A DNA stretch of 64,000 nt. It comes from Dictyostelium discoideum. Lineage: Eukaryota. Shown here piece by piece: positions 4,621 through 15,531 of this stretch (position 1 is the stretch's first letter; each line of letters opens with the position of its first letter). A program made the position numbers and the translations under genes. Below the pieces are notes generated by a model. That model ran no database searches and had not been told where the DNA came from. It saw nothing but the letters and a program-made list of their open reading frames with translations. Where the stretch lies: the NCBI GenBank assembly GCA_000004695.1, contig CM000153.2:1024001-1088000 (forward strand). The letters run 5' to 3'.

Positions 4621-5466
4621 AATATAATTGAAAGATTAAAAAAAATAAAATAAAAACAAAAAAGATTTTTATAGATAATCCCAAAAATTATTTTATTTAC
4701 ATTTTATATTATTTTTTTTTTTTTTGATCATTGTTTTTTAGATTTTTTTTTTTTGTCATAATTTTATTGATTTTTTAAACAATATAAAATTTTCTTTTTT
4801 ACCACATTTGTTTTCATAAACACTATAATTTGTTATTTTATAAAATATCTTCTTTTTTTAAAATTTCAAATGCAATTGAGGCAATAAACCAATAATAATT
4901 TAAATAATATTTAAATTTTTTTTTTTTTTTAAAAAATATAAAAAAAGGTAATTAAATTTATTAAAAAACTTCCCTCGGGATATCCAAAATAATGATTTAA
5001 ACAAGTGAAGTAAATAAAATTAAAATTAGTAAATTTTTTTACTAAAATTTAAAATAAAATCCAATAACATTGAAATTGATACTATCTGTTGTAATATAAT
5101 TATGTAATAATTAAATTGTTACAATTATGTTTTATCAAGATATTAAATTATATACAATCTCCCTCACAAACTAAAATAATTTATGTTTATATAATTAGAC
5201 TTTTCTCACCTGGGTGGGAAAAAGCCACGTGGTGAGTTTTTAATGTCGATTGAAAAACTCACAAACATAATTTTAAATCTCAAATATATTGTGTTAATGT
5301 TCAACAACTATCCTTATTTATTTTTAAAAAAAAAAAAAAAAAAAAATATTTATCTCATAATAAAATTATTCTAAAAGTCTAGTTTTTTCCTTTCTCCCCG
5401 AAACAAGAAAAAGAATAAAAATAAACTTGATATTAAAATTTAGGATAAAAAATCTATTGTATAAAT

Positions 5467-5583: not shown

Positions 5584-7872
5584 ATGGATACATTATCATT
5601 ATTTTTAGGATCAAAGGTAATAATAATAATTAGATTATTATTATTATTATTATTATTATAATTATTATTTTAAAATTAAAACCATATAATATTAATAATA
5701 TTTCTTTTATTTTAGGGTGAAAATAAAAAATTATTTAGCCAACTTTCAAAAATGGTATTAAACTCTGCAATTGATTCAAGAATTCAATACTGTGGTAATG
5801 AACCTTCAATTTTTGAAGATGATTATTTTGAATCTGATAATTTTAAAAAATCAAGTGAATTAATTAAAGAAAATACAAAGTTAATTTGTAATTATATTAA
5901 AGATTCTACTCAATTTTCAAGTTTACGATATCAAGCTCATATGATAGAAGATCCTTTAATTCCAAGTTTTATTGGTACAATTTCAGGCCTTTATTATAAT
6001 ACTAATACATGTACTCCTCAAGTTTCTAATAAATCTTCCTTTATTGAACATGCATTTGCTAGTGACCTATGTTCAATGGTAGGTTATGATACAAGTAAAA
6101 TACCAGATTATTATAATTCAATGAAAACAGTTTCAATAAAAGAAATAATTAAAAGAGAAGTTGAAACTGTATATCCTCATGGTCATAATACTAGTGGTGG
6201 TTCAGTATCAAACATTGAAGCATGTTGGTCAAGTTATTGGGTTAAATTTATTCCAGTTGCAATTAAAAATGCATTATTAAATGAAAATGATTTAATTGAT
6301 TCCAGGGAATTAACAATTACCCTAAATGATTGTAAAACTAATAAACAATTAATTGAATGTACAAATTGGGAATTATCAAATTTAAATGGAGATTTATCAG
6401 TAAAATTACCATATCAAATAAGTTTAGAATGTAATTTACCAATTGAAAATGTTTATGAAATTATTAAAAGATATCATTCGTGTTCATTGGGTGCATATCG
6501 GTTTTTTGTGGATAATCAAATTAATCAACCAATTTATTTAATACCAGCATCAGCTCATTATTGTTTTAAAAAAGCAGTATGTTTGATTGGATTAGGTTCA
6601 ACAAATATAAAATTAATAAAAATTGAACCAAATGGTAGAATAAATATAAATGATGTGAAAATGATTATTAAAAATTGTATTGAGAATCAAATTCCAATTA
6701 TTAATATCATATCGATATTAGGTTCAACCCAAGAGTATGGTGTCGATAATATTGATGAAATAGTTTCAATTAGAAATCAAGTAAGAAGAGACTTGAATTT
6801 TAATTTTGAAATGCATGTAGATGGTGCATTCGGTGGATATTCATTATCATGTATTAGAGATAACTTTCAATTGGAAAATCCATTAGATGATCAATTATTA
6901 TTTCCTAATAATATTGAAAATGAAAATAACAATCAAAATGAAATTGATTCATTTGATCCAGAATTAATAATTAGTAGTTATGTTAAAAAACAATTACATG
7001 CTTGTAAATTTGTAGATTCAATTACATTGGATGGTCATAAATCTGGCTTTTTACCATTTTCAAATAGTACAATTTGTTATAGAAATTCAAAGTATAAAGA
7101 TATTATTACACTCTCTTCTGCTTATATAGATATCTGTAAAAAGAATATTCCAAACTGTGGCGTGTTTGGTATTGAAGGTTCTCGTCCAGGTTATTCTTCA
7201 ATCGCAGGTTATTTAACTCATTCAATAATTCGTCCTTCGAAAATTGGATATGGTAAAATTTTAAAAAGATGTATTTTTAATGCAAAATTATTTTATATAT
7301 CCTTGTTAATTAAATTCGATGGTAATAATGGTAATAATATAAAAGTGTTTACAGTTGGTAATAATCCATCAAGTGATGTTTTAAATTATTTAAAAACAGA
7401 AATAATCGATTCGAATACTGGTAAAATCAAATCATTAGATCAAATTGTATCAAATAAAACATTATTACAAATTTTATCAAATTATGGAGCAGATTTAAAC
7501 GGTGTTTGTTTTGGTTTTAATTTTATTTCACCTTCAACTGGCGAATTAAATAATGATTATCAAAAATATGTAGAACTTAATAAAATGATAATTGATAGAT
7601 TCGATTATTCAAGAGGACCTGAAGCAGATTTGATATTTGGAAATACATTTTTAAATAATAGTTATGGTAATGAATTTATTTCAAATTTCCTTGAAACAAA
7701 TGAATTAAAAATTAATATCCCTATCTATAATAAAATCAAAATTCCAATACTAAGGTCATCAACTATGTCACCTTTTATTAGTGAAACATCTGAAGGTTCA
7801 TATATTGATATTATGCTTTACCTATTATTAAAAGAAATTACAGGTTTTTTATTTTCAATTGATAAATTATAA
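5584..7872 (+). CDS. PLP-dependent group II (DDC/GAD/TyrDC-type) decarboxylase-like protein, paralog A; join(5584..5616,5716..7872), about 729 aa
   Basis: Exon 1 is ATGGATACATTATCATTATTTTTAGGATCAAAG (MDTLSLFLGSK), followed by a GTAATA donor at 5617. The 99-nt AT-rich intron ends in TTTTAG at 5715. Exon 2 (GENKKLFSQLSKMVLNS...) is in frame with track ORF 5752..7872. Motifs present: HGHNTSGGSVSNIEA (TSGGSxSN), HVDGAFGGY and SITLDGHKSGF (the S-x-x-x-D-x-HK PLP-lysine motif). Confidence 0.8.
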
Positions 7873-9127
7873 TTAAGATAATAAATATTAAATAAAAAAT
7901 ATAAATATAAAAATAATACATAATCAATAAAGAATCATTAGAAATCTTAAAATGATAATAAATTTAGTATCAATGATTTTTTAATTTATCAATTATTAAA
8001 TAAATAATTTGATTAGGTGGTGTTTAATTATTTTTTTTTTTTTTTTTTTTGGAATTTATTATTAATTAAAAAAAAAAGTTTTATGATCTAACCCTATAGA
8101 TTCAAAATTCATACTAAATATTATTGACACAATTTTATCACTCACACAAGAGTATAAAATAATACAAAAGTGTTTTTAAAAATCATTATTAATGATTAAT
8201 AGATACACGTCCACCCCAAAATGGGTTATAAACAGCCAGTACAGCCCAAAGTGCACAACTAAATGCTTGTACGGGCTGTATGCAGAATCGATAGGGTTAG
8301 ATAATTACACTTTTTTATCCAATATTGTATTTATTTATTTATTTATTTATTTTTTTATAAAAAAATATTTTATTTAATTTAAATTTACACATATGAACAT
8401 ATCTGGAAAGTGGGTCATTAAAATAAAAAAAACTTTTTTTTTTAATTTTAATTAAATTTAATTTAAAATTAATTAAATTTAATAAAAATGGACATCTGTT
8501 TTAAATAATAAAGTAAAAATTGGTATATCTGTTTTAAACATTTTAATATAATTATTAAAATTTAATAAAATTTTATAATTATTATTTAAATTATTAATGA
8601 AATTAATTAAATTCTAAAAATACATTGGGTTATTAATATAACAAGATATTCTAAAACCGTATTAAAATTTCAAAAAAAAATTTCTTTGTTGCGATGAATT
8701 AGTTTTTCACAAGAGATTATATACCTTACAATAAAAAAGAATATCATTTTTTAAAAAGTAGATAAATGGATAATTAAGTAGATAATGGGATAAAAAAGTA
8801 AGATAATATTTTATGGAGTTATAATTTTAAACATATATTCTTTAATACCCGAAATTTCCTGTTTATTTAAAATTTATATTTGATAATTTTTCAAAATAAA
8901 CCAATATTAATTTGAATAGTGTTAGGTTTTTAATTTGAAATTTATAAATCGTGATAAATCTCTAAACAATTACTAATTAAATTTATATTAATTCTATAAA
9001 ATAAAAAAGTAAAATAAAAAACATTAAAAAAAAAAAAAATTTAAAACTTAATTTTTAAATTCGAAAAATTAATTAGTTATTTTAAAAATTTATATTGAAG
9101 ATAATTATAAATAAAGAATATTTTGAA

Positions 9128-11392
9128 ATGGATTCTTTATCATTATTTTTAGGATCAAAGGTAATATCTTTATATTATTATTATAAATCTCAAACCATAT
9201 TAATTAATTTTTTTTTTTTTTTAAAAAAAAATTAGGGTGAAAATAAAAAATTATTTTCTGAACTTTCAAAAATGGTATCAAACTATGCAATTGATTCAAG
9301 AATTAAATATAGTGGTAATGAACCTTCAATTTTTGAAGATGATTATTTTGAATCTGATGATTTTATAAAATCAAGTGAATTAATTAAAGAAAATACAAAA
9401 TTAATTTGTAATTATATTAAAGATTCTACTCAATTTTCAAGTTTAAGATATCAAGCTCATATGGTTACTGATCCCTTAATTCCAAGTTTTATTGGTACAA
9501 TTGCTGGTCTTTTTTATAACTCTAATATATGTACTACTCAATCTTCTAATAAAACTTCCTTTATTGAATATGAATTTGCAAATGATCTTTGTTCGATGGT
9601 AGGTTATGATACAAGTAATATACCAGATTATTATAATTCAATCAAAACAGTTTCTATAAAAGAAAAAGTTCAAAGAGAATTTGAAACTGTATATCCACAT
9701 GGTCATAATACTAGTGGTGGTTCAGTATCAAACATTGAAGCATGTTGGTCAAGTTATTGGGTTAAATTTATTCCAGTTGCAATTAAAAATGCATTATTAA
9801 ATGAAAATGATTTAATTGATTCCAAAAATTTATTTATTACATTAGAAGATGGTAAAACCAATAAATTATTAATTGAATGTACAAATTGGGAATTATCAAA
9901 TTTAAATGGTGATTTATCAGTAAAATTACCATATCAAATAAGTTTAGAATGTAATTTACCAATTGAAAATGTTTATGAAATTATTAAAAGATATCATTTA
10001 TGCTCATTAGGTACATTTAAATTTTTTGTAAAAAATAAAATTAATGAACCAATTTATTTAATACCAGCATCAGCTCATTATTGTTTTAAAAAGGCAGTAT
10101 GTTTGATTGGATTAGGCTCAGATAATATAAAACTAATAAAAATTGAACCAAATGGTAGAATGAATATAAATGAAGTAAAAACGATTATTAAAAACTGTAT
10201 TGAAAATCAAATTCCAATCATTAATATCATATCGATATTAGGTTCGACTCAAGAGTATGGTGCTGATAATATCGATGAAATTGTTTCAATTAGAAATCAA
10301 GTAAGAAGAGACTTTAATTTTAATTTTGAAATGCATGTAGATGGTGCGTTCGGTGGATATTCATTATCATGTATTAGAGAGAACTTTTGGTTGAAAAATC
10401 CATTAGATTATCAATTATCATTACCTAATAATTTTGAAAATGAACAAAATAATCAAAACGAAACTGATTCATTTGATCCAGAATTAATAATTAGTAGTTT
10501 TTTAAAAAAACAATTACATGCTTGTAAGTTTGTAGATTCAATTACATTGGATGGTCATAAATCTGGCTTTTTACCATTTTCAAATAGTACAATTTGTTAT
10601 AGAAATTCAAAGTATAAAGATATTCTAACATTAGCTCCTGTTTATGTCGATGATGGAAAAAAGAATATTCCAAACTGTGGTGTGTTTGGTATTGAAGGTT
10701 CTCGTCCTGGTCATTCTTCAGTTGCAGGTTATTTAACTCATTCAATAATTCGTCCTTCGAAAAACGGATATGGTAAACTTTTAAAAAGATGTATTTTAAA
10801 TTCGAAATTATTTTATATTTCCTTGTTAATTAAATTCGATGGTAATAATGGTAATAATATAAAAGTGGTCACAGTTGGTAATAACCCATCCAGTGATGTT
10901 TTAAATTATTTAAAAACAGAAATCATCGATTCGAATACTGGTAAAATCAAATCATTAGATCAAATTGTATCAAATAAAACATTATTACAAATTTTATCAA
11001 ATTATGGAGCAGATTTAAACGGTGTTTGTTTTGGTTTTAATTTTATTTCACCTTCAACTGGTGAATTAAATAATGATTATCAAAAATATGTAGAACTTAA
11101 TAAAATGATAATTGATAGATTCGATTATTCAAGAGGACCTGAAGCAGATTTGATATTTGGAAATACATTTTTAAATAATAGTTATGGTAATGAATTTATT
11201 TCAAATTTCCTTGAAACAAATGAATTAAAAATTAACATTCAAGCCTATAATAAAATCAAAATTCCATTACTCAGGTCATCAACTATGTCACCTTTTATTA
11301 GTGAAACATCTGATGGTTCATATATTGATATAATGCTTGACCTATTATTAAAAGAAATTACAGATTTTTTATTTTCAATTGATAAATTATAA
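9128..11392 (+). CDS. PLP-dependent group II decarboxylase-like protein, paralog B; join(9128..9160,9236..11392), about 729 aa
   Basis: Same two-exon structure as paralog A: exon 1 ATGGATTCTTTATCATTATTTTTAGGATCAAAG, GTAATA donor at 9161, acceptor AG at 9234..9235. It is about 90% identical to copy A at the protein level, with all PLP motifs conserved (SITLDGHKSGF, HVDGAFGGY). The 3' flank motif (ttaggtggtgtttaatt vs gaggtggtgttaaatt + poly-T) is also duplicated. Confidence 0.8.
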
Positions 11393-11535
11393 TAAAGATA
11401 ATTTTGAATAAAAAATTAAAAAAAAAATACTTTACATACCCAAAAAAGAACATTAAATATGGATTTCTAGAAATTAATAAAAGTTTAATATCAATACTTT
11501 TTAAAATTTAATAAATTATTAGACGAGGTGGTGTT

Positions 11536-11579
<44 letters not shown>

Positions 11580-12024
11580 TTTCTAGAAAAGTCTTAAAAA
11601 TTAATTATCTTTTAGTTTGTATATTAAAAATAACGTAGAAAGATATGAGCGTTTGGCTTATTTATTGTTGTAGTTTTGTTTTTTAGTTTTTTTAATAAGG
11701 ATAGTCTCCTCTTTTTTTATTTTTTTTATTTCTCCTTATTTTTTTTTTTATAATAATAATGAAAATTTTTTTTTAAAGAAAAAAGAATAGTGTAAGGGGA
11801 GCAGAAAAGAAAATAAAAAATAATATTAAACAAAGAATAGACCAACCGACCAGCGCCACATAAAATTACTTTTCACCACTTTAATGATGGAGTTTTTATA
11901 TCCAGCCAACCTTAGAATAGTGTTTAGGTATTGAGACAATGTTAAATCTTTGGGTAGAGTGTTGTTTTGTTTGAAAGTGTATTCTATTGGGCTATTAAAA
12001 AGTTTTAAATTTTTTAATCTTGGT

Positions 12025-13900
12025 GTTAGGATCAAAGGTAATAATTTTATATTATTATTATTATAAATTTCATACCATATTAATTATAATTTTTACAAAT
12101 TAGGGTGAAAATAAAAAATTATTTTCTGGTCTTTCAAAAATGGTATTAAACTCCGTAGTTGATTCAAGAATTCATATAGGGGTAATGAACCTTCAATTTT
12201 AGAAGACGATTATTAAAGATTCTACTCAATTTTCAAGTTTTAGATATCAAGCTCATATGGTTGTTGATCCTTTAGTTCCAAGTTTATTGGTACAATTGCT
12301 GGTCTTTTTTATAATTCTAATATCTGCACTCCTCAATCTTCTAATAAATCCTCCTTTATTGAAAGTGCATTTACAAATGATCTACGTTCGATGGTAAGTT
12401 ACGATACAAGTAAAATACCAGATTATTATAATTCAATCGAAACAGTTTCAATAAATGAAACAATTAAAAGAGAATTTGAAACTGTATATCCACATGGTCA
12501 TAATACTAGTGGTGGTTCAGTATCAAATATTGAAGCATGTTGGTCAAGTTATTGGGTTAAATTTATTCCAGTTGCAATTAAAAATGCATTATTAAATGAA
12601 AATGATTTAATTGACTCGAAAAATTTATAAATTACACTAGAAGATGGTAAAACCAATAAATTATTAATTGAATGTACAAATTGGGAATTATCAAATTTAA
12701 ATGGTGATTTATCAGTAAAATTACCATATCAAATATGTTTTGAATGTAATTTACCAATTGAAAATGTTTATGAAATTATTAAAAGATATCATTTATGTTC
12801 ATTAGGTACATTTAAATTTTTTACAAATAATCAAATTAATGAACCAATATATTTAATACCAGCATCGTCTTGTCTTAAAAAGGCAGTATGTTTGATTGGA
12901 TTAGGTTCAGATAATATAAAACTAATAAAAATTGAACCAAATGGTAGAATGAATATGAATAAAGTAAAAATGATTATAAAAGATTGTATTGAAACCAAAT
13001 TCCAATAATAAATGTCATATCGATATTAGGCTCAACTCAAGAGTATGGTGTTGATAATGTTGATGAAATATTTTCAATTAGAAATCAAGTAAGAAGAGAC
13101 TTTAATTTTAATTTTGAAATGCATGTAGATGGTGCGTTCGGTGGATATTCATTATCATGTAGTAGAGATAACTTTCAATTGGAAAATCCATTAGATGATC
13201 AATTATTATTTCCTAATAATATTGAAAATGATGATAACAATCAAAATGAAATTGTATCATTTGATCCAGAATTAATAATTAGTAGTTATTTTATGCTTGT
13301 AAATTTGTAGATTCAATTACATTGGATGGTCATAAATCTGGTTATTTACCATTTTCAAATAGTACAATTTGCTACAGAAATTCAAAGTATAAAGATGTTC
13401 TTACATTAGCTCCTGTTTATGTCGATGATGGAAAAAAGAATATTCCAAACTATGGTGTGTTTGGTATTGAAGGTTCTCGTCTAGGTCATTCTTCAGTTGC
13501 AGGTTATTTAACTCATTCAATAATTCGTCCCCTTCAAAAAGTGGATATGGTAAACTTTTAAAAAGATGTATTTTAAATTCGAAATTATTTTATAATTCAC
13601 TATTAACGAAATTCGATGGTAATAATGGTAATAATATAAAAGTGTTTACAATTGGTAATAATCCATCAAGTGATGTTTTAAATTATTTAAAAACAGAAAT
13701 AATCGATTCGAATACTGGTAAAATCAAATCATTAGATCAAATCGTATCAAATAAAACATTATTATAAATTTTATCAAATTATGGAGCAGATTTAAACGGT
13801 GTTTGTTTTGGTTTTAATTTTATTTCGCCTTCTACTGGTGAATTAAATAATGATTATCAAAAATATGTAGAACTTAATAAAATGATAATTGATAGATTAG
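12025..13900 (+). pseudogene. Degenerate third copy of the PLP-decarboxylase gene (truncated at both ends, frameshifts and in-frame stops)
   Basis: Only a remnant of exon 1 is left (ggtgttaggatcaaag|gtaataat at ~12025; the ATG is lost), followed by the intron. The exon-2 homolog starts ~12110 and is readable only as fragments (track ORFs 12391..12630, 13119..13310, 13322..13561). There is a TAA at ~12628, an internal deletion near 12200 and multiple 1-nt indels. It diverges from copy B after aaaatgataattgatagatt at ~13880, so the 3' ~280 nt are missing. Confidence 0.75.
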
Positions 13901-14050
13901 ATGATTTATTGGAACATTTAAATGGAATTTTAATTTTATTTTAATTTTCTTAAAATTTGATATTTTTTTTTTTTTTGTGTAATTCTTGGGAATAAAACCA
14001 ATTAAAAAATTAAAATTTCAACCTGTAATAAAATCTCAGTGTAAACACTC

Positions 14051-14087
<37 letters not shown>

Positions 14088-14407
14088 CTAAAACCTTTCG
14101 GTACTTTTAAAATTTGGGAAAAAATAAAACTTGACACTTTCACAAATGAAACAACCCAATTATTTCATTTAAAAACCACCTCCCAAACAAAATAAATATT
14201 TATAACTCGCCAACAAAACTATTTTTATAATTTGATATCGCGAACAAACAAAAAAAAAAAAATTAAAAAAAAATAAAAAATAAAAAAAATAATTCTCCCA
14301 TCATGATTCGATTGCAGTGCAAACAAAACGATATTTTTTATTTTATTTTTTTTTTTATTTTATTTTATTTTTTTTTTTTTTTCAAAACAATTTTTTGCAT
14401 AAAAAAC

Positions 14408-14775: not shown

Positions 14776-15531
14776 ATGGAAGGTAAAACAATTTTAGTAA
14801 CTGGCGCATCTCGTGGTATTGGTAGAGAAATCTGTTTACAATTAGCATCCTTAAAAAATGTTAATGTTGCTTTAGCAGATGTTAATGTTTGTGAAGAAAC
14901 CATTAACTTGATGAAAGAGATCAACCCATCAGTCGAAACCTTATCAATCGTTTGTGATATCTCAAAGAGTGATCAAGTTGAAGATATGGTAAACAGAGTT
15001 GTTGTAAAATTTGGCCGTTTAGATGGTGCTGTTAACAATGCTGGTATCTTGGGTCAAATGGCTAGAATTGGAGAATATGACGAGTCAATGTTCTCTAAAA
15101 TGATGGATATCAATATCAAAGGTACCTGGTTATGCATTAAATATCAAGTCAAACAAATGGAAAAACAAGGTAAAGGTGACTACTCCATCGTTAACATTTC
15201 CTCAATCGCTGGTGTATTATCATTCCCATACAACAGTGGTTACTCTGCCGTTAAACACGCTATTCTTGGTATCACTAAATCTGCTGCTGCCGAATATGGT
15301 GCCCTCAACATTAGATGTAATGCCGTATTACCAGGTGCCTCTGAAACTGCTATGCTTAGAGAATATTTACCACCAGGTGAAGCAACTGCTCAATTAGAAG
15401 GTCACGTCCCACTCAAGAGAGTATCACACCCAAGTGAAATTGCCAAACCAGTCTTATTCTTATTAAGCCCAGAATCATCCTACATTACTGGTCAATCCTT
15501 AATTGCTGATGGTGGTCTTACTATTGTTTAA
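14776..15531 (+). CDS. Short-chain dehydrogenase/reductase (SDR) family oxidoreductase, 251 aa, single exon
   Basis: TGASRGIG Rossmann motif, NNAG, and a catalytic S...YSAVK triad. GC content and codon usage are higher than in neighbouring genes, typical of a well-expressed Dictyostelium gene. Confidence 0.9.
   Translation: MEGKTILVTGASRGIGREICLQLASLKNVNVALADVNVCEETINLMKEINPSVETLSIVCDISKSDQVEDMVNRVVVKFGRLDGAVNNAGILGQMARIGEYDESMFSKMMDINIKGTWLCIKYQVKQMEKQGKGDYSIVNISSIAGVLSFPYNSGYSAVKHAILGITKSAAAEYGALNIRCNAVLPGASETAMLREYLPPGEATAQLEGHVPLKRVSHPSEIAKPVLFLLSPESSYITGQSLIADGGLTIV

Follow-up and report, generated by a model that had tools for sequence, protein, structure and literature searches.

The GC-rich island between two decarboxylase genes

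We analyzed a 64,000-nt stretch of Dictyostelium discoideum DNA (assembly GCA_000004695.1, contig CM000153.2, positions 1,024,001 to 1,088,000 of the forward strand), in which a compact GC-rich patch lies between two tandem copies, A and B, of a decarboxylase gene. The whole 64-kb stretch is referred to as the window, and coordinates are those of the window unless another locus is named. The product of decarboxylase copy A (5584-7869, one small intron) is identical to XP_638984.1/Q54QN9, which identifies the source as D. discoideum AX4. We found that the patch forms the 3′ half of a 217-bp unit bounded by inverted repeats (8086-8302), which starts 214 bp downstream of the stop codon of copy A, is followed ~820 bp further downstream by the start codon of copy B (ATG at 9128), and may represent a lineage-specific, non-coding foldback insertion or the remnant of one. 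In a second assembly (GCA_054883475.1, CM142510.1; locus L005), which matches the window with 99.7% identity over 20.8 kb and 100% over the spacer between copies A and B, the unit is found at CM142510.1:4,518,173-4,518,389, and the annotation of that assembly calls no gene over it.

GC-rich islands in the intergenic DNA of Dictyostelium, whose genome is very A/T-rich, have classically served as pointers to structural RNA genes, and it is useful to know which of these islands are not such genes. An initial annotation of this DNA had reported a patch of ~45% GC here, and the patch is real: the sequence quoted in that annotation occupies 8202-8300 and has a GC content of 45-49% (0.45 over 8200-8299, with a peak of 0.49 per 80 nt). 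After defining the non-coding background as DNA outside open frames of at least 90 codons, we found that the island has the highest GC of all non-coding 80-nt segments in the window, for which the mean is 0.16 +/- 0.08. The island is present in one copy within the window. The stem-loop that had been described within it was also recovered, with tacagccc at 8240-8247 pairing with gggctgta at 8273-8280 in an 8-bp stem that closes a 25-nt loop, as were the GTGCAC palindrome inside this loop (8251-8256) and an open reading frame (ORF) over the island (8192..8377), which encodes 61 amino acids. For comparison, the reported GC content of D. discoideum is 13% in intergenic regions and 25% in ORFs (PMC5295588).

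Inverted repeat and hairpins of the 217-nt unit

The interval that had been singled out initially, 8195-8310, contains the island but only part of the exceptional structure, as an inverted repeat formed by 8086-8103 and 8285-8302 had been overlooked. The left arm (ATCTAACCCTATAGATTC, 8086..8103) pairs at 17 of 18 positions with the right arm (GAATCGATAGGGTTAGAT, 8285..8302), which coincides with the 3′ end of the GC-rich island (8202..8300 in the GC scan), and the two arms form the closing helix in the minimum free energy (MFE) folds of both strands. The interval between them is 181 nt, and ATCTAACCCTATCGATTC is an arm sequence of the repeat. The repeat lengthens imperfectly to 39 nt with 82% complementarity (8065-8103 / 8285-8323) by means of A/T-rich, imperfect outer extensions on the left (8065..8085) and on the right (8303..8323), and with these outer arms the unit measures ~259 bp (8065-8323). 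The right extension contains AATTACAC and a run of six T residues (T6, 8311-8316) beginning 8 nt past the right arm, which could be a candidate RNA polymerase III (Pol III) terminator for a plus-strand RNA, though T runs are common in the genome. A scan of the window for inverted repeats (length >=12 nt, G/C count >=5, distance <=350 nt) detected no complex inverted repeat but this one, the remaining hits being (GAT)n/(ATC)n artefacts in coding repeats.

Four hairpins lie inside the 17/18 repeat, the first three of them as given by the MFE fold. Hairpin H1 (8132..8160) is A/T-rich, comprises 7+4 bp and overlaps both TATAAAATAA and TCACACAA, a string at 8142-8149 that agrees at 7 of 8 positions with the Dictyostelium upstream sequence element (DUSE). 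Hairpin H2 (8170..8208) is a near-perfect 39-nt palindrome (GTGT.TTTA..AATCATT/AATGATT..TAGA.ACAC), and hairpin H3 (8213..8226; ACCC CAAAAT GGGT) corresponds to the string that had been read as DUSE-like in the initial annotation. Hairpin H4 (8232..8280) includes the 8-bp stem described above as one of its registers, while the MFE fold prefers a competing register at 8232-8279.

Folded alone, the island hairpin did not exceed its dinucleotide shuffles in stability (z = -1.74 on the plus strand and -0.82 on the minus strand). In contrast, the segment 8080-8310, which includes the arms, folded to -64.4 kcal/mol compared with -31.9 +/- 3.8 kcal/mol for its shuffles (z = -8.5 on the plus strand and -6.3 on the minus strand), and the interior (8105-8284) was over-structured by itself (z = -4.9 and -3.3, respectively). 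The inverted repeat is the exceptional feature, and we therefore consider the real unit to be the 217 nt from 8086 to 8302. That both strands fold far beyond shuffles is what one would expect of DNA palindromes.

Comparison with related decarboxylase clusters

The related clusters that we compared comprise those of two strains labelled D. discoideum (ACTFIR, L001; ACTFIW, L006), two labelled D. cf. discoideum (ACTFIZ, L002; ACTFIY, L007 and L009), D. citrinum (L003), D. firmibasis (L004) and D. dimigraforme (L008), amounting to ~200 kb of related loci in all. The suggestion that the island might be a conserved element was not borne out: the GC core was missing from the decarboxylase clusters of 7/7 related genomes, in a presence/absence comparison for which the orthology of spacers within a copy-variable array is uncertain. 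Because the flanking genes align at 80-96% to their counterparts in relatives, and parts of the spacers at ~83%, a conserved GC block of 100 nt would be readily visible. Within the window, the GC core was not found in the paralogous spacer between copies B and C either.

The sole relative of the unit was located in ACTFIR, at L001 14336-14478, and consists of decayed arms and the 3′ flank. The words CCCTATCG and CGATAGGG have one occurrence each in L001 and in the window, in both cases as an inverted pair that follows a decarboxylase copy, and the same is true of CCCTATNG and CNATAGGG, each of which is found exactly once in either locus, as an inverted pair. The right arm with its flank AATTACACT is the sole part of the unit that has a relative elsewhere (L001 14464-14492, CGATAGGGGTAGAT...AATTACACT), and the two align as CGATAGGG[T/G]TAGAT ... 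AATTACACT, with matches at 13/14 and 9/9 positions and an 8-nt indel. The L001 unit also has a helix-closed, multi-hairpin fold (z about -2.6 to -2.8), with a closing stem that is down to 8+2 bp and mismatches that, in our reading of the alignments, show no compensation. Its interior could not be aligned to that of AX4, the local score in the plus orientation being below the shuffle mean, and an inverted 11-mer shared by the two interiors (ATAGATACACG) was marginal (p about 0.02-0.1).

The L001 unit is nested in an insertion of ~1.1 kb that has 27-nt inverted repeats of its own (13768-13794 / 14879-14905). The same family of terminal inverted repeats (TIRs) is represented in L002 by 122-nt arms at 98% (13271-13392 / 14258-14379), in L007 by a copy at 6868-6986 / 8506-8623 and in L006 by a copy consisting of terminal repeats only (9156-9394). 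This TIR/foldback family sits downstream of decarboxylase copies, and its interior differs from strain to strain.

Tests against known classes of RNA

The initial annotation had proposed that the island might be a small non-coding RNA (ncRNA) or a conserved element. An unusual GC-rich structured element is indeed present, and it is more structured than had been noted, but the arguments drawn from the DUSE, from Class I RNAs, from Rfam and from conservation did not hold. The DUSE has the consensus [AT]CCCA[AT]AA (or [CT] at position 6) and is located ~60-63 nt upstream of the transcript start (PMC7919456; PMC3188802). The string ACCCCAAAA (8213-8221), which had been presented as an upstream DUSE-like element, matches [AT]CCCA[ACT]AA with a single mismatch and is located inside the island rather than ~60 nt upstream of it; a start ~60 nt further downstream would therefore land in the 3′ arm of H4, ~30 nt before T6. 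A second one-mismatch string, TCACACAA, in which CAC replaces CCC, is located ~60 nt upstream of where the island starts. There is thus no canonical DUSE at the unit, as both strings carry a mismatch, and one-mismatch strings number 289 on the 128 kb of window strands, or ~1 per 440 nt. None of the 17 exact DUSEs on the same strands (0/17) has a GC island after it. The unit therefore resembles the DUSE-dependent small nuclear RNA (snRNA) and ncRNA genes of Dictyostelia in having DUSE-like strings and differs from them in that neither string is exact, one lies within the island, such strings occur at chance frequency, and no snRNA model matches.

Class I RNAs are ~60 nt long, with a short terminal stem, the 11-nt motif CCUUACAGCAA directly after the 5′ stem and a CUGU end, and their promoters carry a DUSE, or a DUSE and a TGTG box, ~60 nt upstream (Kjellin 2021, PMC7919456). 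The core of the island had been likened to this 11-nt motif (CCTTACAGCAA), yet the likeness is confined to TACAGC, and no match with up to 3 mismatches was found in 8195-8310. At the same threshold, matches to CCTTACAGCAA in the whole window are below chance (73, vs. 103 expected from shuffles). Class I RNAs of the DdR-21 type are reportedly also the subject of work by Aspegren in 2004 and by Avesson in 2011. The unit is like these RNAs in its intergenic location in D. discoideum, its GC content above background, its hairpin and the nearby T run, but its structural units are an internal hairpin of 41-49 nt or the full 217 nt and not the ~60-nt Class I form, and it lacks the 11-nt motif, an exact DUSE and an Rfam match. 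No Class I covariance match was obtained in Rfam 15 at E<=10, a release for which inclusion of the Class I model was not confirmed. Elsewhere in the same spacer, ~420 nt downstream of the island, CCTTACAATAA at 8724-8734 matches the Class I motif with 2 mismatches, which is within chance, and this site has no DUSE or stem context.

A search of Rfam 15, which had been proposed as a check, found no family in the window at the gathering score, and nothing in 7850-8650 when the threshold was relaxed to E<=10. ARAGORN found no transfer RNA (tRNA) in the window. Regarding internal promoters, no B box was detected at up to 3 mismatches, and A-box and Sm-like strings were only poor. The D-box sequence CTGA does not occur on either strand of 8080-8325, and C-box strings were limited to one-mismatch versions. 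The 3′ end is H/ACA-like in having an ACA at 8307-8309 with CTT and T6 after it; by inspection, however, no H box follows H2, and the distance between the ACA and the upper stem is ~28 nt in H4 vs. 14-16 nt in H/ACA RNAs. No Rfam match to a small nucleolar RNA was obtained.

Y RNAs and vault RNAs are Pol III transcripts with a conserved terminal helix and a variable interior. The unit is similar to them in that its ends form a long helix around a variable, partly structured interior, with a T run after the 3′ arm. On the other hand, it has no Y_RNA or Vault match in Rfam and no internal A/B boxes, is ~2x the usual length, and the helix of its related copy has decayed without compensatory changes. 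With the DrnB-dependent microRNA (miRNA) precursors of Dictyostelium (PMC6161686, PMC11014262) it shares an intergenic location and a duplex of ~18-22 bp that could in principle be diced; unlike them, it has a single short duplex around a 181-nt "loop", and the arm and core sequences do not appear in the miRNA tables that accompany either paper. A literature search with the sequence strings returned an unrelated mouse primer as its sole match. None of the family-specific tests placed the unit in a known Dictyostelium RNA class.

Nature of the unit

The unit is short, palindromic, bounded by inverted repeats and seen in only one lineage, and its relative is decayed and nested within another element. 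We therefore favor, as a tentative reading, that it is a relic resembling foldback elements or miniature inverted-repeat transposable elements (MITEs), either a lineage-specific non-coding DNA insertion or what remains of one as it decays. Such a DNA-level insertion fits the data better than a DUSE-driven gene, a Class I gene or an RNA gene under selection. As in MITEs and foldback (FB-like) elements, there are terminal inverted repeats (17/18 in the core and 39 nt at 82% overall, unique in the window) and internal palindromes, and coding capacity is absent, with no homologue for the open frames and no Pfam match. The unit would accordingly have arrived or expanded at the DNA level, through transposition or through palindrome or template-switch duplication, and the hairpins would be palindromes of the DNA, not an RNA fold maintained by selection. 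In related strains, the spacer of the tandem decarboxylase array appears to gain inverted-repeat elements repeatedly, and the ACTFIY cluster carries the DDE_Tnp_4 transposase gene described below. The AX4 unit shares this transposon-prone spacer with the TIR/foldback family of the relatives (L002 13271-14379; L001 13768-14905; L006 9156-9394), and the only relative of its arms is nested inside a member of that family. Most likely, the unit is a small addition to a kind of inverted-repeat element that is already known. If it is not transcribed, it would mark recent structural turnover within a tandem array whose copy number varies by strain. Transcription by read-through would yield a long-stemmed fold-back RNA that could conceivably feed the RNA interference (RNAi) machinery.

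Several observations weigh against a foldback or MITE-like origin. A single copy was seen in the 64-kb AX4 window, and the ~200 kb of related loci gave one partial relative (L001). The outer TIR family of the relatives does not occur in the AX4 window, and the AX4 arms are unrelated to it in sequence. No target-site duplication could be recognised in the flanks (TTTTATG / AATTACA for the core and ..ATTATTA / ATTGTAT.. for the extended unit), whose A/T-rich sequence is uninformative on this point. The best-conserved bases of the arms are the inner and not the outermost ones, which is unusual for TIRs recognised by a transposase. When the unit was aligned as an excision or empty site against the paralogous B-C spacer, the result was only weakly favourable (score of 110 vs. 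96.5, in low-complexity DNA). Furthermore, 49% GC is above what we would expect for Dictyostelium repeats and more typical of structural RNA genes.

The main rival is an orphan, lineage-specific structured ncRNA gene of an undescribed family, which would give rise either to a plus-strand transcript of ~100-110 nt, starting at ~8202-8210 and ending at T6, or to an RNA of ~217 nt closed by the 18-bp helix. We regard this as doubtful. It would account for the GC content of the island, which is ~4 standard deviations over the non-coding background and the highest non-coding value of the window, and it is consistent with the multi-hairpin fold (z = -8.5, with the plus strand somewhat better than the minus strand), with the position of T6 8 nt past the right arm, and with the 7/8 DUSE-like TCACACAA ~60 nt upstream of the island. 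However, this string belongs to a class found every ~440 nt or so, no canonical DUSE is present, the short-RNA model leaves the left arm upstream of any promoter, and the locus yielded no Rfam family at E<=10, no tRNA, no C/D boxes, no B box and no match among the miRNA loci that the supplements to PMC11014262 and PMC6161686 list. The core is also missing at the locus in the seven related genomes, and the single related copy shows decay of the stem and not covariation. Rather unlikely, in our estimation, is the more specific case in which the 217-nt unit as a whole is a structured RNA gene, young and specific to this lineage, that belongs to a type undescribed in Dictyostelia, of Pol III type or transcribed by read-through, with an 18-bp end helix around four hairpins and possibly derived from an inverted-repeat DNA element. 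Transcription, if it occurs, would make the unit an orphan RNA that arose from an inverted-repeat element. If the RNA-gene reading is true, a foldback insertion would have been caught turning into an ncRNA or an RNAi trigger beside a copy-variable, possibly horizontally acquired decarboxylase array.

Readings of the unit as an orphan exon, as foreign DNA or as a regulatory block are each improbable. Three open frames span the island, and one of them, a 35-codon frame on the minus strand (PYRFCIQPVQAFSCALWAVLAVYNPFWGGRVSINH, 8183..8296), has codons from 8296 to 8192 and then closes with TAA TAA TGA. It might be the 3′-terminal or dead exon of an unannotated minus-strand gene, ending in ...PVQAFSCALWAVLAVYNPFWGGRVSINH* and entered through an acceptor-like ...CATACAG| at 8279-8285. 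The encoded peptide is hydrophobic, much like a transmembrane segment, and the GC content at the three codon positions (0.56/0.47/0.25) is near that of the local adh_short gene (0.47/0.39/0.27), with a periodicity significant at p = 0.03 by permutation. This periodicity is nevertheless marginal over 36 codons, the first seven codons are rare, there is neither a start codon nor a convincing upstream exon, and no gene is called there in the annotation of GCA_054883475.1. In a shared-word search of 5.8 billion proteins, neither the 35-amino acid minus frame nor the 61-amino acid plus ORF had a homologue; as none of these proteins shares even three 5-residue words with the minus-frame peptide, no deposited AX4 protein contains it. 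Pfam had nothing for the frames of the island. Taking these results together, we consider an exon very unlikely. Exact protein records were found for none of the 61-amino acid ORF, the ATG-to-stop version of copy A and P0025. For a 42-amino acid minus frame, phmmer returned one match among 1.84 billion representative proteins, to a THFGLHTST repeat protein (P0031), which was spurious, and a 17-amino acid likeness to the YxxxK region of short-chain dehydrogenases/reductases, obtained with tblastn against all fetched loci, was at chance level and was rejected.

Capture of a foreign fragment (from bacterial prey, a symbiont or a virus) or of an organellar or ribosomal DNA (rDNA) fragment at a repair event, with the inverted arm made by snap-back synthesis, would be in keeping with the un-Dictyostelium-like composition, the third-position GC of 0.47-0.56 in two open frames, the lineage specificity of the unit and the inverted copy of nearby sequence that adjoins the GC core. 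We give this little credence, since an exact 24-mer and an exact 26-mer of the core had no match in 185,579 GTDB bacterial and archaeal species genomes or in JGI metagenomes, and the 24-mer had none in IMG/VR. Matches obtained with blastn in plasmid and phage collections were A/T-rich noise with nothing beyond chance, no protein similarity was found in any frame searched, and there was no ribosomal RNA or other Rfam match; Dictyostelium mitochondrial DNA and rDNA were outside the searched sets. It is similarly hard to credit that the island is a cis-regulatory block in which C-rich or G-box-like factor sites are clustered for the neighbouring decarboxylase genes. Its distance of ~820 bp from the ATG of copy B and the presence of CACGTCCACCCC within the island are compatible with such a role, as is the occurrence of CCACGTGG and GGGTGGG in a second GC patch found only in AX4, upstream of copy A (5205-5236). 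Yet 100 nt at 45-49% GC with an 18-bp inverted repeat far exceeds what factor sites need, the two patches are alike in short words only, and no conservation was seen upstream of orthologous or paralogous copies in any relative.

Other features of the decarboxylase array

Other GC-richer patches were observed in and around the array. The patch upstream of copy A extends over 5160-5245, ~350-425 bp before the ATG, and contains a strong hairpin (CTCACC...GGTGAG, 5205-5236; -15.6 kcal/mol, z = -3.0) with T5 directly after it and TCCCTCACAA ~45 nt upstream; it is absent from the related loci with which it was compared (L001-L004 and L006). Another patch (GC of 0.39), containing CCAACCGACCAGCGCCAC, is located at 11826-11981, where the B-C spacer approaches the truncated third decarboxylase copy from its upstream side, and is unrelated in sequence to the island. 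In D. citrinum, a block of tandem repeats (CTCATAGTGGACTGCTGCTGGCCGC...) just downstream of adh_short (L003 14079-14277) reaches a GC of 0.68, which is striking against an intergenic GC of ~16%.

The array itself, which encodes decarboxylases dependent on pyridoxal phosphate, occupies 5584-13902 and comprises in AX4 two full copies and a third that is truncated at its 5′ end (12026-13902). The number of copies ranges from 3 to 7 in other strains of the discoideum complex and is 1 in D. citrinum and 2 in both D. firmibasis and D. dimigraforme. Apart from a D. purpureum protein with 39% identity, the nearest kin outside the genus are bacterial or metagenomic proteins with 30-33% identity. These protein comparisons hint at a possible old horizontal acquisition of the array. 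A gene for a PIF/Harbinger-type transposase (DDE_Tnp_4) was found in the decarboxylase cluster of ACTFIY (L007 15601-16856, equivalent to L009 2736-3991).

The strains ACTFIR and ACTFIW, both labelled Dictyostelium discoideum, are only ~92-96% identical to AX4 over the single-copy flanking genes. This is far more divergence than we would expect within one species, and suggests that there may be cryptic species within the D. discoideum complex.

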